Shown: positions 1,290-41,528 of the stretch, in pieces
Layout: the number at the start of each line of letters is the position of its first letter
Position numbering within the stretch: position 1 is the stretch's first letter
Source of the DNA: Escherichia coli
GTDB lineage: Bacteria; Pseudomonadota; Gammaproteobacteria; Enterobacterales; Enterobacteriaceae
Strand: one strand, 5' to 3'
Length of the DNA: 64,000 nt
Assembly: GCF_048403405.1 (NCBI RefSeq)
Contig: NZ_CP183129.1
Program-made: the position numbers and the translations under genes
The notes under the pieces: generated by a model
What the model was told of the DNA's origin: nothing
Seen by the model: only the letters and a program-made list of their open reading frames with translations
Database searches by the model: none

Positions 1290-1397
1290 ATCGCACACTC
1301 TCCAACATGAAATGGCTAAATGGATTATTGTTGCGTAGGAAGGAACAATAATGATAGTGTTCCTGGTGAAGGAACGCTACTGAGAGTAAAGACACTA

Positions 1398-2420: not shown

Positions 2421-2444
2421 TTTCAGCTTAAAGTTCAAAAGAGA

Positions 2445-3975: not shown

Positions 3976-3987
3976 CTGTTCGCCCCC

Positions 3988-6900
3988 TTACGCCTTCTCA
4001 ATGTTGACTAAGAACGCTTTATATTCCGGCGTTTGCGAGTTTGCATCACCGACATTCGGCGTCAGAGTGTTAGCGATATAACCTTTACGCGCGACACCCT
4101 CAAAGCCCCAGTGGATTGGAATACCCACCGTTTCAACCTGCTGACCGTTTACATTCAGCGGCTTCAGACGGCGCGTTACCACAGCCACCGCGCGGATAAA
4201 GCCACGCTTGCTGGATACGGTGACACGGTCGCCATTGGCGATGCCTTTCGCCGCCGCCAGCGTTTCGCTGATTTCCACAAACTGTTCCGGCTGAGCAATG
4301 GCGTTGAGCAATGCATGCTTAGTCCAGGTGTGGAAGTGCTCGGTCAGACGATAGGTCGTACCCACATACGGGAACTGCTCTTTTTTACCCATCCGCAGCG
4401 CGTCTTGTTCATACAGACGAACGACCGGGTTAGACACCACGTTCGGATGCAGCGGGTTAGTGCCCAGCGGCGTTTCAATTGGCTCGTAGTGTTCCGGGAA
4501 CGGACCTTCCGCCATTTTGTTGATGGCAAACAGGCGTCCCATCCCTTCCGGCTGCATGATAAACGGTCCGGTTAGTGTACCTGGCGCGGCATTGCCGAAG
4601 TCCGGAATATCGTTACCCGTCCACTTGCTGCCGTTCCACTGGATCAGCATCCGTTTCGGATCCCACGGTTTACCGTTGATATCCGCCGAAGCACGGTTGT
4701 AGAGTACGCGACGGTTGAGCGGCCACGCCCAGGCCCATCCCAGCGTATTCCCCAGACCGGACGGGTCGGAGTTATCGCGGTTAGCCATCTGGTTGCCCTG
4801 CTCTGTCCAGCTACCGGTGTAGATCCAGCAAGAAGATGCGGTTGTACCGTCATCACGCAGATGCGCAAAGCTACTCAGCAACTGACCTTTCTTCGCAATC
4901 AGCACGCCATTGGCATCATAGAGATCTTCCAGCGCGTAGCCGTTGTTCTCTTTAGCTACTTCGTCAGATTGCGGTTCGTGCGGCTGCTTGTAGTTCCAGC
5001 TCATCTTCATCAGCGGTTCTACGCCTTTACCACCTTCGGCCTGGTACAGCTCGCGCAGATGATGGTAGATACCCGCCAGAATTTCGCCGTCGTTACGCGC
5101 TTCGCCCGGCGCGTCCTGACCTTTCCAGTGCCACTGCAACCAGCGACCGGAGTTAGCAATAGAACCATCTTCCTCAGCAAAGCAGGTCGAAGGCAGACGG
5201 AATACTTCAGTCTGAATAGACGCAGGATCGACATCGTTCGACTCGCCGTGGTTCTGCCAGAAGGTAGAAGTTTCAGTCACCAGCGGATCGATAACCACCA
5301 TATACTTCAGCTTGCTCAGGCAGCTTACCACTTTGTTTTTGTCCGGGAAGGACGCAACCGGGTTAAAGCCCTGGCAGAAATAACCGGTGACTTTGCCTTC
5401 ATCCATCATGTTGAAATACTTGATGACGTCGTAGGTCTGGTCCCACTTGGGCAGCCAGTCGTAGCCCCAGTTGTTCTCTTTCTGCGCAGCATCGCCGTAG
5501 AAAGATTTCATCAGGCTAACGAAGAACTTCGGATAGTTGCTCCAGTAGTTCACCTGATCAGCCAGCGTCGCTTTCGGCGTGTTCGCTTCCAGATACGACT
5601 GCAAATCAACCTGTTTTTCTGACGGCAGCGTCAGATAACCCGGCAGGCTGGTAGAGAGCAGGCCTAAGTCGGTCAGCCCCTGAATGTTGGAGTGACCACG
5701 CAATGCGTTCACGCCGCCACCGGCCATACCCATGTTACCGAGCAGTAACTGGATCATCGCCATAGTACGGATGTTCTGCGCACCCACGGTGTGCTGCGTC
5801 CAGCCCAGCGCGTAAAGGAAGGTGGTTGTGCGATCCGGTGCGCTGGTGGAGGCCAGCACTTCACACACTTTCAGGAAGTCGGCTTTTGGCGTACCACAGA
5901 TGTTTTCTACTACGTCCGGCGTGTAGCGGGAAACGTGCTCTTTCAGCAAGTTCCACACACAGCGCGGATGAGTCAGTGTTTCATCGCGTTTCGCATAGCC
6001 GTTTTCATCGAACTGATAGTTCCAGGACGATTTATCGTATTGACGTTTTTCAGCGTCGTAGCCGCTGAACAGACCGTCTTCGAAAGCAAAATCATCACGC
6101 ACCAGCAGACTGGCGTTGGTGTAATGCTTAACGTATTCGGCGTTGATTTTGTTGTTTTCGATCAGGTAGCGCAAAACGCCAGACAGGAACGTAATGTCCG
6201 TACCGGAACGAATAGGTGCGTAAATATCCGCTACAGAAGCGGTACGCGTAAAACGGGGATCGACAACGATCAAGGTTGCATCGTTGTTGTTTTTCGCTTC
6301 CATCGCCCAGCGGAAACCGACGGGATGCGCTTCAGCAGCGTTACCGCCCATCACCATTACGACGTTAGCGTTTTTGATATCCACCCAGTGGTTGGTCATC
6401 GCACCGCGACCAAATGTTGGAGCAAGACTTGCTACCGTTGGTCCGTGTCAGACGCGCGCCTGGTTGTCTACCGCCAGCATCCCGAGGGAGCGGGCAAATT
6501 TCTGGGTCAGCATCCCGGTTTCGTTGCTGGCACCGGAGGCACACAGCATACCGGTAGAAAGCCAACGGTTTACCGTTACGCCCTGCTCGTTCTTTTCAAT
6601 AAAGTTAGCGTCACGGTCAGCTTTCATCAGCTTCGCAATACGGGAGAATGCTTCATCCCAGCTAATGCGCTGCCATTTGTCAGAACCTGGCGCACGATAT
6701 TCCGGGTAGCGCAGACGGTTTTCGCTGTTGACGTAATCCAGCAAACCGGCCCCTTTCGGGCACAGCGCACCACGGCTTACCGGATGATCCGGGTCACCTT
6801 CAATGTGATAAATCGCTTCTCTGGCGTTTTTCGCGCCATCACCCAGGCTATACATCAATAGCCCGCAACCTACGGAACAGTATGTGCAGGTGTTACGGAT

Positions 6901-7035
6901 CTCTTTAGCGCGTAATAATTTGTAGTTTCGCGCCTGAGCCAGTGCTTGCTTTGGGGCAAAGCCCAATGCCGCTACTGTTGTTCCAGCCATACCGCCCGCG
7001 CAGATTTTAAAAAATTGTCTGCGACTGACGTCCAT
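3988..7035 (-). CDS. fdnG: Formate dehydrogenase-N alpha subunit, selenocysteine-containing molybdoenzyme; in-frame UGA at 6448..6450 decoded as Sec
   Basis: ORFs 6448..7035 (195 aa, Tat signal RRQFFK) and 3988..6399 are in the same frame separated only by one TGA; local sequence ...NQARV-U-HGPTVA matches the Sec active-site context; total 1015 aa. Confidence 0.93.
6400..6447 (-). other. SECIS-like stem-loop region immediately 3' of the fdnG UGA
   Basis: mRNA sense CACGGACCAACGGUAGCAAGUCUUGCUCCAAC... can fold (GCAAGUCUUGC) directly after the UGA, as expected for bacterial SelB-dependent recoding. Confidence 0.6.
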
Positions 7036-7099
7036 TGCTTTCCTCTTTTTTCAGGGGTATTACTGCGCGAGGAAACTAACAGTAAAATTCTGAATCTTT

Positions 7100-7113
7100 T
7101 TGCGCGAAATCAA
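7100..7113 (-). promoter_or_regulatory. Candidate FNR half-site pair in the fdnG promoter
   Basis: Minus-strand reading TTGAT-TTCG-CGCAA versus consensus TTGAT-N4-ATCAA; about 70 bp upstream of fdnG ATG; fdn is known to be FNR-activated. Confidence 0.4.
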
Positions 7114-7160
7114 AAAGAACACGTGTTTGCCACAAAATAATCCGCCTGCGCAAATTGACC

Positions 7161-7176
7161 TACCTCAATAGCGGTA
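7161..7176 (-). promoter_or_regulatory. Candidate NarL 7-2-7 heptamer pair
   Basis: TACCTCA-AT-AGCGGTA, two inverted near-consensus TACYYMT heptamers with 2-bp spacing, about 60 bp upstream of the FNR-like site; overlaps an alternative FNR-like TTGAC-N4-CTCAA at 7155..7168. Confidence 0.4.
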
Positions 7177-7266
7177 GAAAAACGCACCACTGCCTGACAG
7201 GCCAGTTAAAAAAATGCTATAAAATTCAGCTTAATTTTTAACGGCAAGAGAGACAAAACAGCGAGC

Positions 7267-8148
7267 ATGACACGACAAAAAGCAACGCTCATAGGGCTAA
7301 TAGCGATCGTCCTGTGGAGCACGATGGTAGGATTGATTCGCGGTGTCAGTGAGGGGCTCGGCCCGGTCGGCGGTGCAGCTGCTATCTATTCATTAAGCGG
7401 GCTGCTGTTAATCTTCACGGTTGGATTTCCGCGTATTCGGCAGATCCCGAAAGGCTATTTACTCGCCGGGTGTCTGTTATTCGTCAGCTATGAAATCTGT
7501 CTGGCGCTTTCCTTAGGATATGCGGCGACCCGTCATCAGGCGATTGAAGTGGGTATGGTGAACTATCTGTGGCCCAGCCTGACAATTCTCTTTGCCATTC
7601 TGTTTAATGGTCAGAAAACCAACTGGCTGATTGTACCAGGATTATTATTAGCCCTGGTTGGCGTCTGCTGGGTGTTAGGTGGTGACAATGGATTACATTA
7701 TGATGAAATCATCAATAATATCACCACCAGCCCATTGAGTTATTTCCTGGCGTTTATTGGTGCGTTTATCTGGGCAGCCTACTGCACAGTAACGAATAAA
7801 TACGCACGCGGATTTAACGGAATTACCGTTTTTGTCCTGCTAACGGGAGCAAGTCTGTGGGTTTACTATTTTCTCACGCCACAACCAGAAATGGTATTTA
7901 GCACGCCAGTCATGATTAAACTCATCTCTGCGGCATTTACCTTAGGATTTGCTTATGCTGCATGGAACGTCGGTATATTACATGGCAACGTCACCATTAT
8001 GGCGGTAGGTTCGTATTTTACGCCCGTCCTTTCCTCAGCGCTTGCAGCCGTGCTGCTCAGCGCCCCGCTGTCGTTCTCGTTCTGGCAAGGCGCGCTAATG
8101 GTCTGCGGCGGTTCCCTGCTCTGCTGGCTGGCGACACGTCGTGGCTAA
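7267..8148 (+). CDS. yddG: Aromatic amino acid exporter (DMT/EamA family)
   Basis: 293 aa, about 10 TM segments, recognised as YddG; divergent from fdnG. Confidence 0.93.
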   Translation: MTRQKATLIGLIAIVLWSTMVGLIRGVSEGLGPVGGAAAIYSLSGLLLIFTVGFPRIRQIPKGYLLAGCLLFVSYEICLALSLGYAATRHQAIEVGMVNYLWPSLTILFAILFNGQKTNWLIVPGLLLALVGVCWVLGGDNGLHYDEIINNITTSPLSYFLAFIGAFIWAAYCTVTNKYARGFNGITVFVLLTGASLWVYYFLTPQPEMVFSTPVMIKLISAAFTLGFAYAAWNVGILHGNVTIMAVGSYFTPVLSSALAAVLLSAPLSFSFWQGALMVCGGSLLCWLATRRG

Positions 8149-8406
8149 AATAATTGTCGGGTCTACGGCCCGGCAGTTAATCAGATAAATTCCGACAATA
8201 TAAAAAAATAAATTTCAAATACCAGTAGTTCACCTTATATTTCATTTCGACTTCGATCACATATCGATAAATAATATTATTTCATCTATTTTTCTCATTG
8301 TTTTTAATCACCATTCTATTTTAAAAACAGTATGTCATTTATAAATGACGCCGTTTAAAATTCGTTTAGAAAATACGTTTAACGATAATTAAAAGGATTC
8401 TGTTAA

Positions 8407-9507
8407 ATGAAATTAAAAATAGTTGCGGTGGTTGTAACTGGTTTGTTAGCTGCGAACGTAGCACACGCTGCCGAAGTCTATAACAAGGATGGTAATAAAC
8501 TCGACCTTTATGGCAAGGTTACCGCTCTACGTTATTTTACTGATGATAAGCGTGACGATGGTGATAAAACTTATGCCCGTCTCGGCTTTAAAGGAGAAAC
8601 GCAAATCAATGATCAAATGATTGGTTTTGGTCACTGGGAATATGATTTTAAAGGCTATAACGATGAAGCCAACGGCTCGCGCGGTAACAAGACCCGTCTG
8701 GCCTATGCAGGTTTAAAAATTAGTGAATTTGGCTCTCTGGACTATGGTCGTAACTACGGTGTCGGCTATGACATTGGTTCATGGACCGATATGTTGCCAG
8801 AATTTGGTGGCGATACCTGGAGTCAGAAAGATGTCTTCATGACATACCGTACTACCGGTGTGGCAACCTATCGCAACTACGATTTCTTCGGCTTAATTGA
8901 AGGTCTGAACTTTGCCGCGCAATATCAAGGCAAAAATGAACGCACTGACAATGGCCATCTTTATGGTGCTGACTACACGCGTGCCAATGGTGACGGTTTC
9001 GGTATCTCCTCAACTTATGTTTATGATGGCTTTGGTATCGGTGCGGTGTATACCAAATCCGATCGGACAAATGCGCAGGAAAGAGCCGCTGCTAATCCTC
9101 TCAATGCCTCCGGTAAGAATGCAGAACTGTGGGCTACAGGTATAAAATATGATGCCAACAACATCTACTTTGCAGCTAATTACGCTGAAACATTAAACAT
9201 GACCACCTATGGCGATGGTTATATCTCTAACAAAGCACAAAGTTTTGAAGTAGTGGCACAATATCAATTCGACTTCGGCTTGCGCCCATCACTCGCTTAC
9301 CTGAAATCGAAAGGCAGAGATCTGGGCCGCTACGGCGACCAGGACATGATTGAGTATATCGACGTTGGTGCGACGTATTTCTTCAACAAAAATATGTCGA
9401 CCTATGTTGATTATAAAATCAACCTGATTGATGAAAGCGACTTTACCCGTGCCGTAGATATTCGCACCGATAACATCGTCGCAACGGGCATTACCTATCA
9501 GTTCTAA
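8407..9507 (+). CDS. ompD: General porin of the OmpC/OmpF/PhoE family, OmpD/NmpC-like; intact counterpart of the K-12 yddL pseudogene position
   Basis: Signal peptide [21 protein letters not shown] then [16 protein letters not shown]; C-terminal ...GITYQF; 366 aa; sits next to yddG as ompD does in Salmonella (symbol by synteny and family, from memory). Confidence 0.8.
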
Positions 9508-9520
9508 CATCCTCTCCTGA

Positions 9521-9547
9521 CCAGCCCTTCTCTGGGCTGGTTTTTGA
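9521..9547 (+). terminator. Rho-independent terminator after the porin gene
   Basis: ccagccc-ttctct-gggctgg followed by TTTTT, 14 nt after stop. Confidence 0.8.
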
Positions 9548-9676
9548 TTTAAGTGCTGCTGTATGACTCCTTAAGTAAAAATGAGCAATTTTTGATATTT
9601 CTGGTCACTCACCTCAATTAATATTCTTCCATACCCTCCGGGGACATCTTACTATAATATTTATTGATGTGTGATT

Positions 9677-10936
9677 ATGACCAATATTAATACAGCTTGT
9701 GTAAAAAATAATGCCAGTTATCAATTAAATAACGCATTACCTAACAAAGAAACCATCTCCAGCAATTTTTGTGAACGACTGGCAAAATGGGGTAATAAGT
9801 CGCTTAATAATGGTGAAGAAAGAGCAATTGCCGTAGAGCGAATTAAAGAAGCTTACAATTCGAACATGGCATCTCTTGATTTGTCATATCTTGATTTGAG
9901 TGAGTTACCGACTATCCCCTCGACAGTTAACACGTTAAATCTGGAAAACAATTGTCTCACTTGTCTTGACTTTACTGACAATGCCAGCCTCGTCAATATC
10001 AACCTCAGCTTTAATAAAATTAAAACGATAACCTTTCCAAATGAATCAAAACTGGAAAATATTTATATTGATCACAACAATCTGGAAAGTTTGGATTTAA
10101 AAAATCAGCATTCATTGGTTAACCTGGAAGCGCAAAATAACAATCTGACAAAAATTAACATTTCTGATAGTTATAAACTGAAATTTCTTAATCTTGATTA
10201 TAACAAGCTAGCATCGCTGGATCTCTCCCGGCAAGAATCTCTGATTGAGTTAAGTGCCCATCACAATATGATCACTGACCTTATATTACACAATCATCCC
10301 AGGATGAAAAAAATCACTTTAAACGACAACCATATTGCACATTTAAACGCGAAAACCACTACAAAGCTGGAATATTTAAACTTAAGCAATAACAATTTAT
10401 TGCCAACAGATGACATTGATCAATTAATATCATCAAAACATCTTTGGCATGTATTAGTTAACGGCATCAACAATGATCCACTTGCCCAAATGCAGTACTG
10501 GACTGCAGTAAGAAATATAATTGATGACACTAATGAAGTGACCATTGAATTATCTTATAACCTGGCAATCACAAATATCGATACCAGCGATGAACATCTT
10601 GTAGAAGTAAGCGAGAATTCCGAAGGAAATCATATAAAAGACAATGACTCAATGTCTATTCGTTATAGATCAAAATATTATTCCAGAGAGTACGATTTAA
10701 TAGAAGAAGAAACAATATTTTCTGACGCAGAACTAAAAGCCATTCTGCCTATGCATCGCATGTACGGGGTTGGTGACTATAAGTCAAATTCCTCTTCTCT
10801 ACCCTCACACTCGGGGCTAAAGGACCCAACGGGCACACCCGTCTGTTATTATATTCATAATGAGGATAAACCTTCCTTAGGTTATGGTTCAACACCCAAT
10901 AATTGGTTAAGCCAATCCTTTTCTACAGAGTTATAA
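9677..10936 (+). CDS. yddK: Leucine-rich repeat protein with an IpaH/SspH/YopM-like LRR N-terminal region; no signal peptide; no NEL ligase domain
   Basis: ORF 9671..10936 (GTG; ATG at 9677 chosen); N-terminal ...ERIKEAYNSNMASLDLSYLDLSELPTIPSTVNTLNLENNCLT followed by about 21-22 aa LxxLxLxxNxL repeats; AT-rich; symbol by position relative to K-12 yddK. Confidence 0.75.
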   Translation: MTNINTACVKNNASYQLNNALPNKETISSNFCERLAKWGNKSLNNGEERAIAVERIKEAYNSNMASLDLSYLDLSELPTIPSTVNTLNLENNCLTCLDFTDNASLVNINLSFNKIKTITFPNESKLENIYIDHNNLESLDLKNQHSLVNLEAQNNNLTKINISDSYKLKFLNLDYNKLASLDLSRQESLIELSAHHNMITDLILHNHPRMKKITLNDNHIAHLNAKTTTKLEYLNLSNNNLLPTDDIDQLISSKHLWHVLVNGINNDPLAQMQYWTAVRNIIDDTNEVTIELSYNLAITNIDTSDEHLVEVSENSEGNHIKDNDSMSIRYRSKYYSREYDLIEEETIFSDAELKAILPMHRMYGVGDYKSNSSSLPSHSGLKDPTGTPVCYYIHNEDKPSLGYGSTPNNWLSQSFSTEL

Positions 10937-10997
10937 AACACATCCTGATTTATCAAGGGTGATAAATCAGAAAAGAAAGTATTACTACGGAGCAGTT

Positions 10998-21769: not shown

Positions 21770-22615
21770 TTATTTTCCCGCCTCCGGGTGCGTATCAAAC
21801 GCCGCCATCACCAACGCTAACTCATCCACAGTAAAGCCATGTTTCACATCATCCACGCCCAGACCAAACTGTTCTTGCATCACAGCATATAACGACGCCA
21901 CATCCGCTAGATTTCGCTGTTCCACCGCGTGCCCATTTTCATAATGGGTAAAATGAAAATTGGTCAGTGTCAGCTTGCCGCCGTCCGGCAAATGGCGGCA
22001 CATCAGCAAATGATGGCGAAAATGCGACTGCGGCCAGTGTGCAGACCAGAAATTGCCCATTACATAATCGCTTTGTTGCTGCTCGCAGAGATCAAAACGG
22101 TACATCGACTGCCAGTGCTGATGATGATTAAACTGCAACACCCAATCATCACCCTCCTGTAACAACCGATACTCTCCGTGTGGCGTGAACTGCACGAGAT
22201 CGGGAACTAACCGAATCGGCGCGGTTAGCGTCTGTCCACCGAAACCGACATCAGCAATCCATTTTTCCCCTTCCAGTTCCACCAACAGCAAACGATGGGT
22301 GCGCGGCGGTAATGCTGGCGGATTTGATAACACTACGCGCCCTAACAAGCTGCGAACGTTAAACCCCAGCTCGCGTAACACCCGCTCAAACACGCCATTC
22401 TGCTCAAAACAGTAACCGCCACGACGGGCTGTCACCAGTTTCTCTTCCAGCGATTGATCATCAAGCTGTATTTCCCTTGGCAGCAAAACGTCGAGGTTTT
22501 CAAATGGAATGGTGCAATTGTGTTTCAGGTGCAATGCACGCAGCGTATCAATATTGGCCGCAGCAGCTCCCAACCAGTTAATACGGGCAAAATAGTGATT
22601 CAGAATGGGCGTCAT
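21770..22615 (-). CDS. nhoA: Arylamine N-acetyltransferase / N-hydroxyarylamine O-acetyltransferase
   Basis: 281 aa; NAT family with catalytic Cys context GGYCFEQNG. Confidence 0.93.
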   Translation of the reverse strand: MTPILNHYFARINWLGAAAANIDTLRALHLKHNCTIPFENLDVLLPREIQLDDQSLEEKLVTARRGGYCFEQNGVFERVLRELGFNVRSLLGRVVLSNPPALPPRTHRLLLVELEGEKWIADVGFGGQTLTAPIRLVPDLVQFTPHGEYRLLQEGDDWVLQFNHHQHWQSMYRFDLCEQQQSDYVMGNFWSAHWPQSHFRHHLLMCRHLPDGGKLTLTNFHFTHYENGHAVEQRNLADVASLYAVMQEQFGLGVDDVKHGFTVDELALVMAAFDTHPEAGK

Positions 22616-22789
22616 CAGGCGTTTCCCTTAGTGGTTTTCTCAACTTATAACCTGGAATAGACGCTGCACCGGCTATTTTGTGCGATCGCGGACATGCATC
22701 ACGTTCGCAAATCGCCAATCCCGTTAATTTCGTTACTTATTGCGTTACGAGCTACGCTTTTAAAACACCCTTCATAGCGAGGCGATACC

Positions 22790-23359
22790 GTGAGCCGATT
22801 CATCCCTGTCGAATTACACCATGCCAGCCGTCTGTTAAATCATGGCCCAACTGTCTTGATCACCAGTTTCGATGAGCAATCCCAGCGGCGTAACATTATG
22901 GCAGCCGCCTGGTCAATGCCGGTGGAGTTTGAACCGCCACGCGTGGCGATTGTGGTAGATAAATCGACATGGACCAGGGAGTTGATTGAACGTAATGGTA
23001 AGTTTGGCATCGTTATCCCGGGTGTTGCAGCAACTAACTGGACGTGGGCGGTGGGAAGTGTGTCGGGGCGTGATGAAGATAAGTTTAATTGCTATGGTAT
23101 TCCGGTTGTGAAAGGTCCGGTGCTTGGTTTGCCGCTGGTCGAGGAAAAATGTCTGGCGTGGATGGAGTGTCGCCTGCTACCTGCAACTTCCGCGCAAGAA
23201 AAATACGATACGCTATTTGGCGAAGTGGTATCTGCAGCGGCAGACGCACGAGTATTTGTCGAAGGCCGCTGGCAGTTTGATGATGACAAACTCAATACGT
23301 TGCATCATTTAGGTGCTGGCACGTTTGTTACCAGCGGCCAGCGTGTTACGGCAGGTTAA
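22790..23359 (+). CDS. yddH: Flavin reductase-like (FMN-binding split-barrel) protein
   Basis: 189 aa, GTG start; recognised as YddH. Confidence 0.85.
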   Translation: MSRFIPVELHHASRLLNHGPTVLITSFDEQSQRRNIMAAAWSMPVEFEPPRVAIVVDKSTWTRELIERNGKFGIVIPGVAATNWTWAVGSVSGRDEDKFNCYGIPVVKGPVLGLPLVEEKCLAWMECRLLPATSAQEKYDTLFGEVVSAAADARVFVEGRWQFDDDKLNTLHHLGAGTFVTSGQRVTAG

Positions 23360-23362
23360 GCA

Positions 23363-23590
23363 TTACATGCTGTAACCGGGTTTCTTTATCAAAGCCTCCA
23401 TTTGGGGCTCGATTTCGGCATCCCAGATAGCTTGCCAAGATTCTGGTTGAATCTGCTGTAGAGAAATGCTTATCGAGCTATCTTTACTGTTCAGATGGCG
23501 AATAATAACGTCGGTAATATCTGCAGCGAGTGCTGCTTTTTGTTGTTCGTCCAGTTCACGCGGAAAACATTTAATGTCTATGTGCGGCAT
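23363..23590 (-). CDS. pptA: Tautomerase (4-oxalocrotonate tautomerase family)
   Basis: 75 aa from [18 protein letters not shown] (N-terminal Pro after Met removal) within ORF 23363..23629. Confidence 0.88.
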
Positions 23591-23895
23591 GATTGTGCTC
23601 CTTTTGAAAGATGTCAGTAAAATTAACACACGTTGTGAATGTCGTGTGTCCGGTAATGCGTTTTTACGGCAATAATGCCTACTTGAAATTGTACATATTT
23701 GTACTACACACTTTTAAATAAAGCGCCAATGAAAACGTTAACTTGCAGAATATATTCTTCGCCAACATGCCATTAAGAAAACATCAAGTTCCCGGCTTGC
23801 CAATTGGTTAACGCCCATTATAGTTATTCTTGCCCTCACTAAAAATTTTCATCCGTAATTACCCCCAATAAAAATCCATTCTGGAGACGCTTAAG

Positions 23896-25872
23896 ATGCA
23901 GCTTAATCATATCGTTAAAAGTCTGCTAATAACGGGATTATTCACCACCAGTTCTTTACCTCTCCTCGCGGCGGAAGCTCCTAAAGACGCCACCGCAGCC
24001 ACGCAACAAGCAAACAATTTACTCTACAACCAGTTGCCGTTTGCCGATAACACTGACTTTACTGATGCCCATAAAGGTTTTATTGCCCCTATCCCTCAAG
24101 ACGTGATTAAGGGCGAACAAGGGAATGTTATCTGGGATCCACAACATTACGCTTTTATCAAAGAAGGCGATAAAGCCCCTGATACGGTGAATCCGAGTTT
24201 ATGGCGTCAGGCGCAACTGATAAATATCAGCGGGTTATTCGAAGTAACTGAAGGTGTCTATCAGATTCGCAATCTCGATCTATCAAATATGACCATCATT
24301 GAAGGCAAAGAGGGTATTACCGTCGTTGATCCCCTTGTTTCAGCAGAAACAGCCAAAGTGGGTATGGATCTCTATTACAAAAATCGCGGCAAAAAACCGG
24401 TAGTGGCGGTTATCTATACACACAGTCATGTCGATCACTACGGTGGTGTTCGTGGCGTAATTGATGAAGCTGACGTTAAATCAGGCAAAGTTAAAATCTA
24501 TGCGCCAGCCGGATTTTTGGAGGAAGCCGTTTCCGAAAACATCATGGCTGGCAATGTTATGAGCCGACGAGCCAGTTATATGTATGGCAACTTATTGAAA
24601 CCTGATGTTAAAGGCCAGGTGGGGGCTGGACTGGGAACGACTACTTCAGCAGGAACAGTCACGTTGATTGCTCCTACTAACTACATCACCAAAACCGGAC
24701 AAAAAGAAACTATTGACGGGTTGACTTATGATTTCCTGATGGCGCCAGGTTCTGAAGCGCCTTCTGAAATGCTGTGGTTTATTGAAGAAAAGAAACTGAT
24801 CGAAACCGCTGAAGATGTCACGCACACCCTTCATAACACCTATTCGCTGCGTGGGGCTAAAATTCGCCAACCGCTGCCGTGGTCAAAATATATTAATGAA
24901 GCTCTCAATTTGTGGGGTGATAAAGCCGAGATTATTCTCGCTCAACATCACTGGCCAACCTGGGGCAACGATAACGTGGTCAAACTGCTTAAAAGCCAGC
25001 GTGATTTGTATCGTTACATCAATGATCAAACTCTGCGCATGGCTAATCAAGGGATGACCCGTGATGAAATTGCCGCAAACTTTAAACTGCCCTCTTCACT
25101 GGCTAACACCTGGGCGAATCGCGGCTATTACGGTTCGGTAAGTCATGACGTGAAAGCAACTTACGTGCTTTATCTCGGCTGGTTTGATGGTAACCCCGCG
25201 ACGCTTGATGAACTGCCGCCAGAAGAAGGCGCAAAAAAATTCGTCGAGTATATGGGCGGTGCTGATGCCATTTTACAGAAAGCCAAACAGGATTATGACC
25301 AGGGTAATTTCCGCTGGGTTGCCCAAGTTGTTAGTAAGGTGGTGTTTGCCGATCCAAACAACCAGGCAGCGAGAGATCTGGAAGCTGATGCGCTTGAGCA
25401 GTTAGGCTATCAGGCTGAATCTGGGCCGTGGCGTAATTTCTATCTCACTGGTGCACAGGAATTGCGTAATGGCGTACAAAAATTACCAACACCAAATACT
25501 GCCAGCCCAGACACCGTGCGTGCGATGACGCCGGAGATGTTCTTTGATTATCTTGCCGTCCATATTAATGGTGAGAAAGCGGCAGATGCCAAAACCGTGT
25601 TGAATTTCGATTTTGGTGAAGATGGCGGCACCTATAAAGTGGAGCTTGAAAATGGTGTTCTCAATCATACCGCTGGTGTAGAGGCTTCGGATGCTGATGC
25701 CACTATCACTCTGTCTCGTGATGTATTGAACAAAATTGTACTGAAAGAAGAGACGCTGAAAGAAGCCACGGCCAAAGGAGATGTCAAAATTACTGGCAAT
25801 GAGGAAAAACTCAACGAGCTGTTAGGTTATATGGATAATTTTGAATTTTGGTTCAATATAGTGACACCATAA
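23896..25872 (+). CDS. Periplasmic alkyl/aryl-sulfatase-like protein (metallo-beta-lactamase fold, SdsA1/YjcS family)
   Basis: 658 aa; signal peptide MQLNHIVKSLLITGLFTTSSLPLLAA; MBL motif YTHSHVDHYGG; C-terminal SCP2-like region; not at this position in K-12 as I recall it. Confidence 0.8.
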   Translation: MQLNHIVKSLLITGLFTTSSLPLLAAEAPKDATAATQQANNLLYNQLPFADNTDFTDAHKGFIAPIPQDVIKGEQGNVIWDPQHYAFIKEGDKAPDTVNPSLWRQAQLINISGLFEVTEGVYQIRNLDLSNMTIIEGKEGITVVDPLVSAETAKVGMDLYYKNRGKKPVVAVIYTHSHVDHYGGVRGVIDEADVKSGKVKIYAPAGFLEEAVSENIMAGNVMSRRASYMYGNLLKPDVKGQVGAGLGTTTSAGTVTLIAPTNYITKTGQKETIDGLTYDFLMAPGSEAPSEMLWFIEEKKLIETAEDVTHTLHNTYSLRGAKIRQPLPWSKYINEALNLWGDKAEIILAQHHWPTWGNDNVVKLLKSQRDLYRYINDQTLRMANQGMTRDEIAANFKLPSSLANTWANRGYYGSVSHDVKATYVLYLGWFDGNPATLDELPPEEGAKKFVEYMGGADAILQKAKQDYDQGNFRWVAQVVSKVVFADPNNQAARDLEADALEQLGYQAESGPWRNFYLTGAQELRNGVQKLPTPNTASPDTVRAMTPEMFFDYLAVHINGEKAADAKTVLNFDFGEDGGTYKVELENGVLNHTAGVEASDADATITLSRDVLNKIVLKEETLKEATAKGDVKITGNEEKLNELLGYMDNFEFWFNIVTP

Positions 25873-27089: not shown

Positions 27090-27641
27090 CTATCTTCTTA
27101 GCGATGTCTTTCTGGTATCACATTGGATCGGTGCAATTATTTTTCCTTTAATACCCATTATGTTAAGAAATTCAGAAACAGCTGTAATCTCATTGTTTTT
27201 TTCATTCGTCTTGATCTTACAAGGAATCTGACTGTGCATTATTGAGAACACACTAATAACGTGAATCGCTCCCTTGCGACGACTCTTGTCATAAGAGTAC
27301 CGGAGCGTTTTTCCATCAATTGCAATGACGTCTTTATCATCTGAAGAATGGCAGTCAAGCATCCAGTTAATAAAGCACTCATGAAATTTTTCAGGACTGA
27401 TACAGGATACAACTCTGGCAATGGTATCGTGAACAGGAATACCATTATCAAAATCACCATATTGCTTCAAAAAATCGAGATGTGTTTCCCCAAAATCCTC
27501 TATATCTTCCCAGCCTTCTGCACCCGAAATAACGGCACAAATAGTCAACAGTAGAATATCCGATAATTTATGTTCCACTTTCCAGGCTTGTCTGTAATCG
27601 GGGATAATAGAAATATGTCCCATCAATTTTTTAAGTTCCAT
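27090..27641 (-). pseudogene. ISAs1-family (H-repeat, YhhI/YdcC-like) transposase, 3'-truncated fragment
   Basis: N-terminal about 166 aa match the H-rpt protein ([12 protein letters not shown]...[11 protein letters not shown]...IDGKTLR) then the frame diverges and stops; full-length homologs are about 378 aa. Confidence 0.8.
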
Positions 27642-27789
27642 TTTGTTCTCCTTAATTATGTAAGGAGTATTTGATCATGTATACGCAATAAAAAACAGCT
27701 TCAGGTAATGAGGAATATCTCAATTGTTAAACATAAAATGCGAATTGTCTAGTACAAAAAAGCAGCGTTACGTGATCTTTCCGTGGATC

Positions 27790-27912
27790 GTCAAATTGTT
27801 CGAGAGAAAATACCAACATGATGGATTTTACTGTAAAAGTAATGTCGTAGTTTAAAAACTCATCATCCGGTAAAGCCTTGTGGGGCGTGGGCTTTCATAC
27901 TTTTACCCTGAT
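27790..27912 (-). repeat. ISAs1/H-rpt element upstream end (copy 1 of a conserved roughly 120-bp block)
   Basis: tcaaattgttcgagagaaaataccaacatgatgg...cttgtggggcgtgggctttcat...ccctgat is about 85 percent identical to 34529..34650. Confidence 0.65.
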
Positions 27913-28226
27913 GTCTGCTATACGCCGGACACCCTTTACGTAGCATTCGGAATTCACCCGTAAATTTATCACGGCGGTATCACGAAACCTCCGGTTCTGA
28001 TGCCGCTTAGGACTAACGACACGTCAACACAGGTTCGGGTTTATTCATTTCACTGTATCTCATATAATCTGAGCACTCCCCCTGCGCTCGCTACTATGAC
28101 TCTTTACCACAGCAACCGGGGTTGTTTGGGATCGGCTTTCAACAGCAGATCCCGGTGGCTATTGCAAGTAAGTCTACTTTCCACATCAGTGTTACTGACA
28201 CAGAAAATAATGAGTTATGATCCTTG

Positions 28227-28712
28227 TCATATTTTTAATATAGCCCCATGAGCTATAGGATCAAAACCTTCTAACCATGAGGTGTTTTTATCGAATAATG
28301 CACCTGTTATATTTATATCGCCATATCTATCACATAATAAATTAGCGCCACATAAGTCAGCACCAGAAAAATTTGAATCTTTAACGTCTGCATTGCAAAA
28401 GGTTGAATTAGTTAATATAGCACCCTCAAAGTTTGCACCTATTGACCTTGAATTACTAAAGTCACTTCCAGTGAAATCTGAGTTATTAAGAATAGCGTTC
28501 ATCAGAGCCGCATTGCGAAAGACAGCATTTCTAGTTGATGTATGTTGAATCATTACATTTCTTAAATGGGAATTTTCAAATTTCGCCCCATCAAGACAAT
28601 AACCATTGAGGATGGCACGATGTAGATCCATCCCGCTAAAATCATATCCAGCAAGAGTGGTACTATCTATATCAAGAAATTTATTGGTTATTAAAAACGC
28701 GATTCTTATCAT
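28227..28712 (-). CDS. Pentapeptide-repeat protein; putative cognate immunity protein of the adjacent Rhs toxin
   Basis: 161 aa; tandem A(D/N)(L/F)xx pentapeptides ([11 protein letters not shown]..., [33 protein letters not shown]); start ATG overlaps Rhs stop (ATGA) so translationally coupled; AT-rich. Confidence 0.8.
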
Positions 28713-31700
28713 CTATTCCCCCAATCATCTAACTCCGGAAAAATTTGGCTAAACGGATATAGTGGTGCCGATAATGGACGCGTACCTGGCCGCTCAGGAG
28801 GAAGTTTATCACATAACAGACCCGCAACCATCCTGTGATTACCATTAACAATCACATTCCCATCCATATCAACCGGTGGTGCTCCACTACCATCTTCCAG
28901 CATTTGTACGTAGTGAGCTACTACGGGTACTGAGACTTTTTGTTGTACTGTCAACAAGGGACTGTTGGCCACAACCATCCTGATGTTTTCAGGTGTCGTA
29001 GGTAAACATTTAGTCTTCTCTTGACTAAAGGTATCATCCCACAATTTTGTTAAACCCATCACTGCCTGTTGTCTGTATTTATCCATGGGGTCAGCAATCA
29101 ACCAAGATGGACCTGACTGCTCTATGGAATCTTCTCCGGAGAGACCCAACGGATCTATCTTAGTAGTTGGATTCAATGGATACTGATACAGGTTCCATGC
29201 ACCTCTTAGCCCAATGGGATCCTGGGTGATATACCGCCCCTGCAACGGGTCATAGTACCGGTTGCGGTTATAGTACAGCCCCGACTCCTCATCATACTGC
29301 TGCCCCGGCAGACGGTACGGCTGTTGCAGTTGCTGCGCGCTGGTTTCGCCCAGCAGGTTTCCCCACTCGTCATACTCCCCCTGCCACGCCGTTTCCCCTT
29401 CCGGGCTGATGAGCGCCTGCGGCAGCCCCCGGTGGTCGCAGTGGTAAAGATGAAGTGTCCTCTCCGGGATGTATTCCGCCTCCATCTGGTTTTTCATCTG
29501 TTCCGCCGTCAGCCCGCACTGCTGAAGCCATGCCTCACTCTCCGCACTCACCGCACCCGCGCGCAGTTCCCGCTCCAGCCTCCCCAGCATCACCGACAGC
29601 TCCGCCGGTAGCGTCACCCCCGTGTCCTCCTGCAACACCTCCGCCAGACTCCGGTGCCGCGCCTTCGCCTGTTCACCATTCTCTGTTTCGATTCTGATGA
29701 GCGGCGTGAAGCTCCCCGGCTGGTATACCGTCTGGATACGCGTGGTGCCGGTCTGTACCGTCGTCAGCCTGTCACCGTCCCACCCGTACCAGGTCTCCTC
29801 CGGTTTACGCGACAGCGACATCCACCCCGTCAGGTCACGCTCCCGCCGCCACACCCGTTTCCCCGTCCGGCGGCCCAGCGGGTCATAGAGGTAGCGGCTC
29901 TCCACCTGTGGCTCGCCGTGCTGTATCCGCGTGTAGAACACCAGGCGGTGCTGGCTGTCGTAATGGTAGTGGTGCGTCCGCTCGTCGTGCATCCGTATCA
30001 CCCCTTCCGGGATACGGTCCGTCTTCTCCGCCAGCCTGCCGTATTCATCGTAGCGGTAGACATAGTGCGCATCTTCCGTGATGCGGTTATCCGGCCACGC
30101 CGTGAAGGTGCTGTCCGGGTGCAGTTCCGGGTCCGGCAGCCGGTTTCCTGCCGGGTCCGTCGCATACGGGATATCGATATCCAGGTTCGCCGCCGTGGTG
30201 TGAACGCCCGTCAGTCTTCCCGTGTCGCTGTAACGGTACTTCCGGCTCTCCTGCGGGCCGCTGATGCGCACCAGTTGCCCGTTATCGTTCCACGTATACT
30301 CACGGTCAAGCTGCGGAAGGTTCAGGTGCCTGCTCCGGAGCTGCCCTGTGAGGGTGTACGCCGTGGCCTGTTCGTACCCCGCTGTACTGCCCGCCCCGCC
30401 GAAGCTGCGGGCCGTCTCACGGTGCAGCCGGTCCCGCGTGTACTCGACCAGCGGCGTTCCGCCCAGCTTCATCCCCGCAAGATAACCGCTGCCATACGTC
30501 AGCCACTCCACCGGCGGCAGACCGTCCGGCTCCTGACGGGTCGCCAGCCCCTGTTCGCTGTAGACGTGCCTCGTCTCATGCTCCCACAGCATCTCCCCCG
30601 TCTCCTGGTTCTCCACCGTCTGCCGTTCGCCCGTCAGGCGGCCTTTATCGTCATAGCCGTAGTGGACCGCCACACGGTGGCCTTCGCTCAGGTGGCTGAT
30701 TTCTGTCAGCCAGCCGTGGTCGTCATACTGCCACTGCTCCGCCGGGTCGCCGTTCACCGTCCGGTGCGTGATGCGCCCGGCGTCATCGTAGTACCACTGC
30801 GTGACCTGCCCCTCATCCTCGCTGCGGATGAGCTGCCCTGTGGCGCTGTACCGGTAACGCTGTGTCCTGCCGTCAAAGCCGCGCTGCTCCGTCAGCCTGT
30901 CCACCGGGTCATACCGGAACGTGGACTGGCTGCCGTTCTCGTTGGTCAGCACGGTGATGCGCCCGGCGGCGTCATACTCCATGCTGCGCGTCAGTCCGCC
31001 CTGCGTGGTGCTGACGGCCTTTCCCCACGCATCATACTGTGTCTCACTCCGGCTGCCGTTCGGGGCAATGATAGCGGTGAGGTCGCCTGCGGCGCTGTAC
31101 TCATAACGGGTTTCACGTCCCTGCGCATCCTTCTGACTGACCAGTTGACCACGCGGGTTATAACTGCTGTAAGTGCTGATGCCTTCCTCCCGGTGAACCG
31201 CCGTCCTCTGACCGTACCGGTCGTATTCATACCGCGTCGTGTACCCTGAACAGTCCGTAAATGCCTGAAGCTGACCGTACCGGTTTCGCGTTATTCTCCG
31301 CCTCACCCCGGTTCCGTCTTCCACCGCACAGGGCAGGCCACTGCGGGAAGAATCATAAAACCAGCGCGTAATGTTACCGTTGCGCGAGACCTCTTCCGCC
31401 AGCCTGCCCTGACGGTCATATTTCCGGCTGCGGCGCAGCCCGTCCGGGTACGTCACTGACGTCAGTTGCAACTGGTTGTTGTAACCATACCGTACCGTCC
31501 TGCCGTCCGGCAGTATCACTGAAGTCAGCTTTCCCGACGCCATATGCAGCCGGTACTCCGTCCGCCGTCCCGCCGCATCCGTCTGCGCCTTCAGCCTCCC
31601 CGCCTCATCATACTCGCTGCGGGTGATGCTCCCGTCCCCATACTCCTTCTTCACCACCCGCTTCAGGCCGCCCTCGCCCTCCGTGTACAGCACCTCCCGC

Positions 31701-32920
31701 CGGTTCAGGCTGTCCGTGATGGTCACGCGGTCCTGCCCGTACTCAAAGCGGTAGTCCAGCCCCTCCGGGTTGACCTGCTCCGTCACCCGACCGGTATCAT
31801 CATACCGGTAGCGGCTCTCCGGCCTCCCCGCATAATGGTGCGCCACCATCCGCCCGGCGTGCTCCGCATCATAAGTAAACCCGCGCACCTGCGTCCCGCT
31901 GCGGTCATACACCGCCCGCAGTTCTCCGCTGGCCGTGTACGTGTAGCGCGCCAGCGGCGCAGTCGGCAGTTCATCCGGGTATGCCGGGTCGTGTGTCAGC
32001 CATACCGCCTCCAGCCGGATACCGTTATCGGCACCGTACTCTGTACCGGTGGGCAGCGTGTCGGGGAAAAACTGAGAAGAGGAAACAGAACGGGGACTGG
32101 CCGGAGAAGATAAAGAAGACTCGCGCTGTTTACGGAAGGCTTTCGCCCGCTGCGCCTGTGTGGTCAGCGCCAGATGAAAACGGCGGCCCGCGCCGTCCGT
32201 CACCCCCGTCACCGCGCCCGCCGCTTCCCCCTCTGCCGCCCGGTGGAAGGCCAGCGTCCGCCCGAAGCCGTCCACCACGCCCGTCAGCACCCGGTATGCG
32301 GGCGGCTCCGGCGGCAGCACCTCGTCCGCCTCCGGCACCCGCTCCGGCCAGCCGAGTATCCACCACGGCCCCTGAAGGCTGTTTGTCGCCAGGTACACAT
32401 GCGGGCTTAAGCGGAGACTCTCCGGCAGCACCTGCCAGAGCGCGCTTAGCGGCTGCGAACTGTGCTGCTCCGCCACCCCGCCCCTTGCCAGCCAGAACGA
32501 CTCGCTGCGGCTGTAGCTTATCTCGCCGGGAAACAGCGGCTCAAAGTGAATGCTCCTGCCGCCACTGTCGTTGAGTATCAGTTCCCGCTCATGAACCTGT
32601 AAGCGGATATCGAAGGGCGCTTTCCAGCCGGGACCAAACACCCCCACCGGCGCGGGTGTCCTGGTCCGGTAGCTGCTGTAGGCGCGGGAAAGAATAAACG
32701 GCAACGGGCCGGGCAGCGCAAGATCCGTCTCGCCCGGCAGCACCTTCGCACCCAGTAGCGGGTTCACCGGGTTACCCTTCTGCTCCTCCACCGGGCTGTT
32801 GGGACACACCGAGCAGGCCACTCCCGTCGGCGCACCTATCAGCACCCCCGCTGAACCCTGCACAATATCCAGTCCCTTGCGGGTCATATCGCCCTGTCGC
32901 GCCGCCGGTTTTCCGCTCAT
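28709..32920 (-). CDS. Rhs-family polymorphic toxin (PAAR-containing N-terminus, YD-repeat shell, DPLGL-delimited variable C-terminal toxin tip)
   Basis: 1403 aa; N-terminal [13 protein letters not shown]...[12 protein letters not shown]; many YD repeats ([18 protein letters not shown]...); conserved PxxxxDPLGL just before the last 143 aa; GC-rich core, AT-rich tip. Confidence 0.93.
28712..29140 (-). other. Rhs C-terminal variable toxin domain (last 143 aa), family not recognised
   Basis: Sequence after DPLGL: [10 protein letters not shown]...VVAHYVQM...[17 protein letters not shown]...ELDDWGNR; base composition drops relative to the Rhs core. Confidence 0.6.
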
Positions 32921-32939
32921 GGTTTATTCCTTAAATTAT

Positions 32940-33131
32940 TTATGGTTTTATTCTGAGTGCAATCCATACTGATTCATAACCAGTGAATAAGATTTCCCCG
33001 AATAATCTATATAAATTAGCGAAGTCCTCTTCACTAATTAACCGTAAAATCCCGTACCAATGAAATATAAAAATAACCACCCACACAAATTTATTGCAAA
33101 TATTATTTATTATTGTATATACATCATTCAC
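32940..33131 (-). CDS. Hypothetical small hydrophobic protein immediately upstream of Rhs (may be spurious)
   Basis: 63-aa ORF with GTG start in an AT-rich region; ends 17 nt before the Rhs start; no recognisable domain. Confidence 0.2.
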   Translation of the reverse strand: MNDVYTIINNICNKFVWVVIFIFHWYGILRLISEEDFANLYRLFGEILFTGYESVWIALRIKP

Positions 33132-33341
33132 TGAACGTTCTCAAACTGCATACCTTAGAACCATCAATTAAAGCCACAACAAAAAAAATCGATTACTTTA
33201 TGTCGCATGACAAATATGAATTACATATTAATCAACCTTAAAAACAATCATCTCTTATAATTAACAGCATACCATGAGAAACACAAAATCAATTTACCAT
33301 GCATACCAGGAGCATAATTAACCTCTCACCGCAGGGCGAAA

Positions 33342-34478
33342 TCATGAAGGCCCGCAGCCAGCAAGGATTAGAGAAAGGTATTCATTCTTACGTCCTGCCC
33401 GCTTTTGCTTGCGTTTAATACCCGCTTTAAAGCTATTCTCTGCGGTCAGTAAATTCATCGCGATATGTCGACAAACTGCCAGATTTTCTCCCGCTTCTCC
33501 ACGAACAATCTGGCATTCATCTTCCCGCATCCCCATATCAAGTCGCCAGTGCAGTTGATTTTCTACCGACCAGTGTGCTCGTGTTGCTTCCAGGAGTTCT
33601 TTCGCCGTAAGCGTCACCGAACTTATGTAGTAGCGAAGAATACACTTCTCTGATTTCACCGCTGTTTCTCCTTCCTGTCTGCTCGCCAGCACTATTCCTA
33701 TCGTGCTCAGCTCTGACCATTCATAAGCTAAATCACCCAGAGCGGTTAAATCATGGCTCACAATGCAGCATCGTGTATCTTCCCGTCCATGCCCTTTTTC
33801 CTGCGTGCTGTAACTGTCATACCTCTCACCCAGCCACATTGTCGGCGAGTACCCGTTATCAAACGCCTCCGCTAATTTTCCCTGATTTCCTTTCAGCGCC
33901 AGCAGGTAACCGGCTTTCTTTTTCAGAATTTCACGGGCGATTATATGCTGGCAACCCATTGCATCCAGCGTGACCAGACACCCTTTTAATTCCAGCAACT
34001 GGAGCCGTTCCGGGATCGCCGTTATCTCATTCGATTTTGCCCCTGTTTTCACCTGCCCCAAAACCAGACGATTTTCTGCGCTAAAAGCACTGACCCTATG
34101 GATCACGGCATTACGTTTCGATTTATCGTAAGTACCCCGTAATGACTTACCATCAATCGCCACAACAGAGCCTTCAGACAACGTGTGACAGTCCTTCATC
34201 TACTGGATAAAAAGGGGCTGTAATTGTTTTGCTGAAATCATTCCCATCACTCGGGCAATCGTGTGATGGGAGGGGGTGCCATTTTCAAAATCACCATACA
34301 GGCGTAACCATTCCAGATGCTCCTCACCAAAATCAGCAATTTCTTCCCATCCTTCAGCGCCACCGATAATGGCGGTGATCGTCAGAAAAAGGATATCCGC
34401 CAGGCTGTAACTGGTTTTCCAGGACTGGCGATAATCGTGAATAATTGAAATTTGATCCAAAAGGCTTAGTCCGTTCAT
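33342..34478 (-). pseudogene. ISAs1-family (H-repeat) transposase gene inactivated by a single in-frame amber codon
   Basis: ORFs 34200..34478 (92 aa) and 33342..34199 (285 aa) are in the same frame separated only by TAG at 34200..34202; together 378 codons, the length of an intact H-rpt protein; the stop sits where homologs have Trp (…FINW-MRDCH…). Confidence 0.85.
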
Positions 34479-34528
34479 GGTGTGCTATCCATCAAAAAGA
34501 AAGGATAAGATCACACTGAAATAAGATG

Positions 34529-34650
34529 GTCAAATTGATCGAAAAAAAGATCAACATGATGGGTTTTACGATAAAAGTAATGTCGCGATTTAAAAATTCA
34601 TCATTCACCAAAGTCTTGTGGGGCGCGGGCTTTCATGCTTTTTCCCTGAT
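34529..34650 (-). repeat. ISAs1/H-rpt element upstream end (copy 2)
   Basis: Paired with 27790..27912 (see above). Confidence 0.65.
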
Positions 34651-34888
34651 ACGCTACCGCTCTGCCCTGATAACATGATCTGCACGGCGCTATCATATCG
34701 ACATATTTCTCTACATGCGAAAGGATGTTTTATTTTCGGATTATATTAAATTGATATTTCATATAAAAAACGAGATTACATAAATCATATAAATAATTGT
34801 ACCAACTTTAATTACCATTCATAGCAAACAAATGGATGTCCAGTTAACTACGCCAGTGATTTATTAACATTAATCTCCGGCATTATTG

Positions 34889-35495
34889 TTAAATAATGGC
34901 ATTCCTTTTTAGTATTTCTTGTAACGTTGGTATCGGACATACAGCATCAGCAATCGCACTGATATTCGCGGCATTATCTTGAAACCATTCATGCCCCGGT
35001 CCCCATATGCGCATAACGCAGAGATAAGGGTAGCTGATCGCCAAACGCATAAGGTTCAGCAGTGAGCTACGAATTCAACCAGATATAAAACGATTTTCGA
35101 TATTCAATAACATTCTTCTTTAACTGTTCGGGTGCGTCAGGAGCCCAACGCTCAGGGTAATCGGCGAAAGTGAATGTTGGATAGACATTAGCAACCAGCC
35201 AGACCAATAGCCGTTGAAACTGCTGACGTTCGGCGCGCCCAACCGGTGGCGCAAGGTCCGGGCGACGATCGAGAACCATCAATGCAATCGCCGCTGTCTC
35301 CGTCATAATCTCGTCATTTTCCAGCGCCAGTGTCGGAATCTGACACAACGGGTTCAGGGTTTTCAATAACTCGCGTGAGGTTCCCTCGTGGTCAAAACCA
35401 CTGACATCAACGAACTGATAAGGAATATCAGCCAGTGTTAGCATCAGCTCACTGATTGTAGAGCCCCATCCGGGTACGCCATACACCTTAATCAT
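34889..35495 (-). pseudogene. yncG: Glutathione S-transferase homolog, disrupted (in-frame TAG plus a frameshifting deletion)
   Basis: N-terminal 142 aa intact (MIKVYGVPGWGSTISEL...YIWLNS) then TAG at 35067..35069; the GST C-terminal region (...WGPGHEWFQDNAANISAIADAVC...) continues in another frame; total 607 nt, not a multiple of 3. Confidence 0.75.
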
Positions 35496-40813: not shown

Positions 40814-41528
40814 TTGTGCACAGAAAACCCCCAGCTAGGCTGGGGGTTCCGGAAAGCTTTCAGCTTTAAGCCAGTTATTAAAACCCCTTTTGATTTGTTA
40901 AAACACCTTGCGGTCTGGCAACTGCAAGTGTCAAACAAGAAATCAAAAGGGGGTCCCAATGGGGAACGAAAAGAGCTTAGCGCACACCCGATGGAACTGT
41001 AAATATCACATAGTTTTTGCGCCAAAATACCGAAGACAGGTGTTCTACAGAGAGAAGCGTAGAGCAATAGGCAGTATTTTGAGAAAGCTGTGTGAGTGGA
41101 AAAGTGTACGGATTCTGGAAGCTGAATGCTGTGCAGATCATATCCATATGCTTGTGGAGATCCCGCCCAAAATGAGCGTATCCGGCTTTATGGGATATCT
41201 GAAAGGGAAAAGCAGTCTGATGCTTTACGAGCAGTTTGGTGATTTGAAATTCAAATACAGGAACAGGGAGTTCTGGTGCAGAGGGTACTACGTCGATACG
41301 GTGGGTAAGAACACGGCGAAGATACAGGATTACATAAAGCACCAGCTTGAAGAGGATAAAATGGGAGAGCAGTTATCGATTCCCTATCCGGGCAGCCCGT
41401 TTACGGGCCGTAAGTAACGAAGTTGGATGCAAATGTCAGATCGTGTGCGCCTGTTAGGGCGCGGCTGGTAAGAGAGCCTTATAGGCGCATTTGAAAAACC
41501 TCCGGCTATGCCGGAGGATATTTATTTA
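40814..41528 (+). mobile_element. IS200-like insertion sequence, copy B (inverted relative to copy A)
   Basis: Near-identical to the reverse complement of 1680..2394 with a few substitutions; boundaries +/-3 bp. Confidence 0.85.
40959..41417 (+). CDS. tnpA: IS200/IS605 family Y1 transposase TnpA
   Basis: 152 aa from MGNEKSLAHTRWNCKYHIVFAPKYRR; differs from copy A at a few residues (e.g. D3N, LAFYG to QVFYR). Confidence 0.9.
   Translation: MGNEKSLAHTRWNCKYHIVFAPKYRRQVFYREKRRAIGSILRKLCEWKSVRILEAECCADHIHMLVEIPPKMSVSGFMGYLKGKSSLMLYEQFGDLKFKYRNREFWCRGYYVDTVGKNTAKIQDYIKHQLEEDKMGEQLSIPYPGSPFTGRK

Follow-up and report, generated by a model that had tools for sequence, protein, structure and literature searches.

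A single amber codon at a conserved tryptophan interrupts the transposase of a Tolumonas-like ISAs1 element bordering an Escherichia coli Rhs island

The window, a stretch of 64,000 nucleotides of Escherichia coli chromosomal DNA, contains an ISAs1-family insertion sequence (IS) with a transposase gene interrupted by one amber codon. Very probably this is a structurally complete IS inactivated by a single TGG to TAG change and now fixed as an immobile single-copy relic. In such a model the change at Trp93 would cut the catalytic domain off the DNA-binding part of the transposase and inactivate it, the mutation would have become fixed and been inherited vertically in one E. coli lineage, and the element would have been left as an immobile relic, present once, at the yncG-proximal edge of an RhsE-type toxin island. 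The lesion itself was already known, as RefSeq annotates a pseudogene ('ISAs1 family transposase; internal stop') in both of two independent records, and it is an ordinary IS pseudogene. What our analysis adds is where the element truly begins and ends, that it is something other than an H-repeat (H-rpt), that the TAG is fixed, and a second fragment that brackets the Rhs module.

The transposase is encoded on the minus strand by two open reading frames (ORFs). The N-terminal ORF (34203..34478) comprises 92 codons from its ATG start and carries a DDE_Tnp_1_assoc domain (PF13808, E 2.8e-28), while the C-terminal ORF (33342..34199) comprises 285 codons plus TGA (33344..33342) and carries the DDE_Tnp_1 catalytic domain (PF01609, E 1.7e-22). 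A first-pass annotation had described the two as contiguous in one frame and split only by TAG at 34200..34202, and direct reading of the minus strand bears this out; the sole separator is this codon ('cta' on the plus strand), which sits at the boundary with the PF13808 domain on one side and the PF01609 DDE domain on the other. Directly 3' of the TAG, the family's invariant Met94 (ATG at 34199) opens the 285-codon ORF. With tryptophan restored, the 378-aa protein matches the NCBIfam model NF033564 ('ISAs1 family transposase') at 386.7 bits (E 7.4e-116; cut-off 70 bits) and aligns over its full length with 378-aa relatives with zero indels, so that the further frameshifts envisaged as a possibility by the same annotation are absent. 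It had also placed the TAG where intact proteins have Trp and proposed a single G to A change as its origin. Column 93 is indeed Trp in 17/17 intact sequences of a first alignment and in 115 of the 116 intact homologues of a larger one (the lone exception being Cys), and a stop occupies it in none of the 116. In the DNA of the nearest relatives (five aligned copies, three distinct proteins) codon 93 is TGG, and because Trp has only this codon, one G>A transition (C>T at plus-strand 34201) suffices to create the stop.

D109 (AIDGK), D172 (LDAMGCQ) and E306 (HWSVEN), the putative catalytic triad judging from the positions of the DDE_Tnp_1 motifs, occupy invariant columns and are all kept in the window gene. 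Besides W93*, three non-consensus residues (L158R, V195L and E234D) fall at columns conserved in at least 95% of the 116-homologue alignment. These four deviations compare with a homologue median of 1, and as many occur in 7 of the 116 intact homologues, which may weakly suggest some decay. Relative to its homologues the gene has a dN of ~0.10 and an overall dN/dS of ~0.03, the only usable form of this ratio, because saturation at synonymous sites (dS > 3) and an uncertain branching order of the closest relatives rule out branch-specific estimates. The low overall value therefore indicates purifying selection through nearly all of the gene's divergence, a span against which the stop is a recent event. 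One in-frame stop at a conserved codon, with neither frameshift nor indel, is what would be expected of a transposase pseudogene arising via a single nonsense mutation, and the capacity for transposition has presumably been lost with it. The counterpoint to reading the element as a dead IS is that, the TAG is the only break in its ORF, with the DDE columns and the two terminal repeats preserved, so that a single A>G reversion might in principle bring it back. Restoration by suppression appears less straightforward. Amber suppressors insert Gln (supE), Tyr (supF), Ser (supD) or Leu (supP), and none inserts Trp. The proposal that an amber-suppressor background would yield full-length transposase consequently holds for the length of the polypeptide, but the chain would carry Gln, Tyr, Ser or Leu at a near-invariant Trp in addition to the three changed conserved residues, and its activity is not assured. 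No tRNA genes were found in the window, and hence no window-encoded suppressor.

The interval 33342-34478, originally given for the element, is correct for the coding sequence but not for the IS, which spans 33332..34648 on the minus strand (1317 bp). These limits derive from an alignment of copies in unrelated contexts, in which homology to Tolumonas-like relatives (1318-1319 bp) is bounded by CAGGG...CCCTG. The left inverted repeat (34625..34648, minus strand), CAGGGAAAAAGCATGAAAGCCCGC in minus-strand reading, has one mismatch against that of the relatives (IRL, CAGGGC...). The right inverted repeat (33332..33355, plus strand), CAGGGCGAAATCATGAAGGCCCGC in plus-strand reading, includes the transposase stop codon. 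The two 24-nt repeats match at 20/24 positions and both begin CAGGG. An untranslated leader of 146 nt (34479..34624, minus strand) connects the left repeat to the ATG and contains an A7 run at 34542..34548 (plus strand). No target-site duplication is present, the flanks CCTCTCACCG and ATACGCTACC matching at 3/10 positions. Of three distinct relative insertions whose contigs extend past both ends, one (L005) is flanked by a 10-bp duplication (AGGGAAGCAT) and the other two (L002 and L007) are not; a missing duplication speaks to the history of this copy rather than to family membership. A promoter and terminator scan of 32800..35100 returned counts not above those of shuffled sequence.

The element also serves as a phage target. 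In some E. coli assemblies a lambdoid prophage is integrated at 34203/34204 within the IS (loci L016 and L017, at 3775/3776), with an Arm-binding integrase, a small upstream ORF at the excisionase position and a RecE-like exonuclease, and the fusion protein P0202 is found on 13 contigs. The junction reads ...CCCCTTTTTATCCA / TAAGGTGGAGCAC, and the sequences first differ at the base 1 nt 5' of the TAG. An integrase of this same type occurs beside potC in ~1700 complete genomes with the junction ...CCACCTTCTTATTCA / TAAGGTGGAGCAC. The IS, which matches the core at 11/14 positions, therefore provides a secondary attachment site.

The transposase gene lies upstream of an Rhs gene, as first described, and the two are co-oriented. 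The IS right end is separated from the start of the Rhs core protein gene (28709..32920, minus strand; 1403 aa) by an AT-rich spacer of 411 bp (32921..33331; 30% GC) that occurs only in IS-carrying genomes. The IS is placed at the yncG-proximal edge of a variable RhsE-type island, whose neighbours at higher coordinates are yncE, ansP and a yncG pseudogene; 34649, the base next to the left repeat, is exactly where homology with other E. coli sets in on the yncG side. The glutathione S-transferase homologue yncG (34889..35495, minus strand) carries a frameshift and an internal stop here according to RefSeq; it is intact in strain PK8261 and broken in Nissle and EC5654. Beyond the Rhs gene lies a second, partial copy of the focal IS type (27786..27910, minus strand), consisting of a left repeat (CAGGGTAAAAGTATGAAAGCCCAC) and 5' leader and present only in the ~144 focal-IS genomes. 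This 125-nt copy is identical to focal IS positions 1-124 at 104/125 positions (~83%), and shares 64-72% identity with the Tolumonas-like copies. It directly abuts the left end (CACGGAAAGATCACG...) of a classical H-rpt (27090..27785, minus strand), which begins at 27785 and has a 144-nt leader and a frameshifted ORF (27641..27090) without its C-terminus. RefSeq annotates one truncated ISAs1 gene here, and this composite of abutting left ends precedes it. The truncated H-repeat that had been noted downstream of Rhs (27090..27641) is a classical H-rpt. In the sequence upstream of its ORF, matches to classical H-rpts (~5 per genome, in 5336 genomes) are confined to 27785..27642, and the left ends of these elements do not match that of the focal element. 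A classical H-rpt was inserted into or joined onto the downstream focal-type copy, and that H-rpt was later truncated.

Two co-oriented left ends of one IS type consequently bracket the Rhs module, which contains rhs, a pentapeptide-repeat gene and a group II intron fragment. The last of these, located at 28051..28159 (minus strand) where the pentapeptide-repeat gene gives way to the downstream IS fragments, is an Rfam group-II-D1D4-2 match with 48 bits against a gathering score of 36 and looks like an intron remnant inside the Rhs island. The first-pass annotation had considered a location upstream of Rhs unusual, H-repeats being classically found downstream. The upstream location stands, but it is less unusual than supposed given the left-end fragment of the same type downstream and the H-rpt left ends found at the same junction elsewhere. 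In strains with a PAAR-VgrG island (PK8261, Nissle and EC5654) a classical H-rpt left end lies 5 nt from the same core junction. In PK8261 (L008, 8842..9000) the equivalent of the 34649 junction is followed by TTAAT and then by H-rpt sequence that runs from the left end through the whole leader to nt 11 of the ORF, after which comes the PAAR gene, and Nissle (L019) and EC5654 (L020) have the same layout. ISAs1-family ends upstream of cargo are therefore not peculiar to the window. A tail-only ISAs1 fragment is present at the far end of the PK8261 island. The PK8261 sequence 'TTTCCCTG' was considered as a stub of the focal left repeat and rejected, as it is the classical H-rpt left end (CAGGGAAAGATTACG...). 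Also rejected was a mosaic origin of the focal IS from an H-rpt 5' end and a Tolumonas-like body. The idea arose because, in comparison with the truncated H-rpt and what precedes it, identity falls from 83% over the first ~120 nt of the IS to ~54% over its body (maximum-chi-square scan, p = 7e-6); the sequence at 27910..27786 is not H-rpt but a fragment of the focal IS type.

This layout raises the tentative possibility, to which we would give perhaps one chance in several, that the IS upstream of Rhs is one arm of an IS-bracketed module assembled or moved by two co-oriented copies, the downstream copy having later been hit by a classical H-rpt and truncated. Such an origin complements rather than competes with the pseudogene explanation, and the element and second fragment may once have framed, or helped to assemble, the Rhs module. 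It would account for the second left end having the same orientation and occurring only in the same ~144 genomes, for a left repeat that abuts the core genome exactly, and for a focal IS without a target-site duplication when a relative has one of 10 bp. The spacer and IS are moreover always found together, the spacer and junction occurring only with the IS, and no empty site exists among 5426 genomes. However, the two left ends at 83% identity are not recent sister copies, two of the three distinct relative insertions likewise lack duplications, and the downstream copy has lost its right end, where an outer duplication would have been expected. Islands at this locus may also simply exchange by homologous recombination in the flanking core genes.

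A different and improbable view of the amber codon itself is that the split gene is still used. Reinitiation at UAG-AUG would produce separate DNA-binding (92 aa) and catalytic (285 aa) polypeptides, or only the 92-aa product might be in use, in a regulatory role that could concern the element or read-through transcription into rhs. The immediate succession of the TAG and the invariant Met94 ATG, with no gap, makes some downstream translation possible, and each half keeps a complete Pfam domain. Gene callers also pick out a GTG start, preceded at 7 nt by an AAGG motif, which yields the 273-aa product. Against this, the ATG is not preceded by a purine-rich ribosome-binding site (Shine-Dalgarno), every intact relative makes one polypeptide with TGG, and the single copy at one locus in every genome gives no sign of activity. 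Nor is there a second disabling lesion in 140 genomes, which might speak for continued use, but these genomes are at least 99.9% identical here and the lack of lesions therefore reflects youth rather than constraint. Slightly less probable still is the broader proposal that UAG-AUG reinitiation or rare read-through yields a 92-aa DNA-binding protein and a catalytic fragment that would be retained as a regulator of the element or rhs, or as a conditional two-part transposase.

Some IS elements are known to regulate the level of their transposase by recoding, IS1 and IS3 doing so by frameshifting, and UAG followed by A is a relatively leaky, well-suppressed context. The UAG-A found here, positioned between two domains, could in that light be a programmed read-through signal setting the transposase level. 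We regard this as very unlikely, since none of the 116 relatives has a stop at this position and Rfam finds no match inside the element. An origin of the TAG in faulty sequencing or assembly, or as a mutation private to one strain, has nothing in its favour beyond prior possibility and may be dismissed, the sequence being identical in 140 independently assembled complete genomes, the split products occurring on at least 1000 contigs each and metagenome contigs sharing the same TAG.

Returning to the inactivated, fixed IS as the preferred explanation, its distribution is that of a clonal locus. The element is present in 145/5426 complete E. coli genomes (~2.6%), in one place per genome and always at 99% identity or above, with identical flanks in 139 genomes. 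A megablast search found no second place for it in any complete genome, and this single copy at one locus per genome argues against recent transposition. Across the 140 complete E. coli genomes in which it is present, the 61-mer with the TAG at its centre shows no difference (100% identity), and no one-mismatch version occurs among the complete E. coli genomes searched, which settles the concern, raised in the first-pass annotation, that the stop might be a sequencing error. The recorded split products are of 92 aa and 279 aa, and the metagenome contigs with the TAG number two. One carrier strain, NMBU_W05E18, belongs to ST38 and phylogroup D (PMC7311804). The TAG is fixed and vertically inherited in one E. 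coli lineage that includes at least one ST38/phylogroup D strain. The A7 run of the leader is A8 in part of the carriers, for example CFSAN061763, and across 33050..34760 this is the sole difference from that strain, the one carrier compared base by base. Protein P0213 (contig L014), tried as a divergent relative with the same stop, was rejected because it is the same E. coli element at 99.1% identity; its differences, 8/10 of them C>A, are taken to be read errors. In the protein cluster of the 279-aa C-terminal fragment (P0171), some GenBank records read 'type IV secretion protein Rhs', a name that looks to have been carried over from the neighbouring gene. No publication on this element, and none with usable ISAs1 family parameters, came out of our literature search.

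Elsewhere, the window is collinear with strain WP9-S17-ESBL-11 (NZ_AP022287.1) from ~24001 on. Over 1..24000 the comparison with that sister genome shows two offsets, +1189 and then -11/-12 nt, suggestive of a differing IS content; an IS200-family and an ISKpn26-like element are annotated there in the sister genome. Two full-length Rfam STnc490 matches of 146 bits each (2259..2382, minus strand; 40826..40949, plus strand) are consistent in position with two annotated IS200-family transposase genes of NZ_AP022287, and a SECIS_3 match (6395..6453, minus strand; 84 bits) corresponds in the sister annotation to fdnG, the gene for the selenoprotein alpha subunit of formate dehydrogenase-N.

As a routine example of IS decay the lesion matters little. 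Of modest note is that the Tolumonas-like ISAs1 lineage in E. coli consists of one broken copy and one 125-nt fragment that together bracket an Rhs toxin module, a small data point for the long-noted link of ISAs1/H-rpt elements with Rhs. Because the lesion is fixed and clonal it can be used as a marker of the island-carrying lineage, and the element offers a one-nucleotide revertant substrate for the study of transposition in the little-studied ISAs1 family.

The element belongs to the ISAs1 family, whose prototype is ISAs1 of Aeromonas salmonicida. ISAs1-family elements are about 1.2-1.35 kb in length. The focal element resembles them in its 1317 bp, in terminal inverted repeats beginning CAGGG and in a 378-aa transposase with PF13808 followed by PF01609 that scores 386.7 bits against NF033564; it differs in carrying an amber at Trp93 and in lacking a target-site duplication. 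Its closest counterparts are ISAs1 elements from Tolumonas, sewage and metagenomes. In a search of 5.8 billion protein clusters the nearest intact proteins were 83%, 79%, 78% and 76% identical, with no intact protein above 83%. The 83% and 79% clusters include proteins of an uncultured Tolumonas (WP_320153683.1) and of T. auensis DSM 9187 (WP_015878551.1), and E. coli entries in the clusters are only fragments of 92 aa and 273-285 aa. The plasmid collection yielded nothing above ~67% identity over most of the element. Tolumonas-type elements share with the focal copy 79-83% amino acid identity, a length of 378 aa, a collinear leader, a total of 1318-1319 bp and the same 24-nt repeats with one mismatch. 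They are however only ~76% identical in nucleotide sequence with saturated synonymous sites, and for this reason do not represent a recent donor. Tolumonas-type copies are intact and multi-copy, in contrast to the lone, broken copy of E. coli. At 61-67% identity to the focal transposase, named Oceanisphaera and Vibrio proteins are more distant, and the H-rpt-like proteins of Salmonella and Citrobacter more distant again at 51-53%.

The first-pass annotation had treated the element as an H-rpt, and this assignment is not upheld. The classical E. coli H-repeat (H-rpt/ISEc1; YhhI, YdcC and YbfD) belongs to the same IS family, is likewise associated with Rhs and is often defective. It nevertheless has a different leader and a left end that reads CA[G/C]GGAAAGATCACG..., and the H-rpt protein in the window (ORF 27641..27090) is 52% identical in amino acids to the focal protein. 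Copy number also separates the two, classical H-rpts occurring ~5 times per genome in nearly all E. coli and the focal element once in 2.6%. By these comparisons the focal element is to be read as a separate, Tolumonas-like ISAs1 lineage and not as a classical H-repeat. The nearest precedents for its decay are the H-rpt pseudogenes yncI and ybfL of E. coli K-12, which are ISAs1-family genes at Rhs loci with point lesions and are annotated as pseudogenes. Both are of classical H-rpt descent and are found on the downstream side of Rhs cores.
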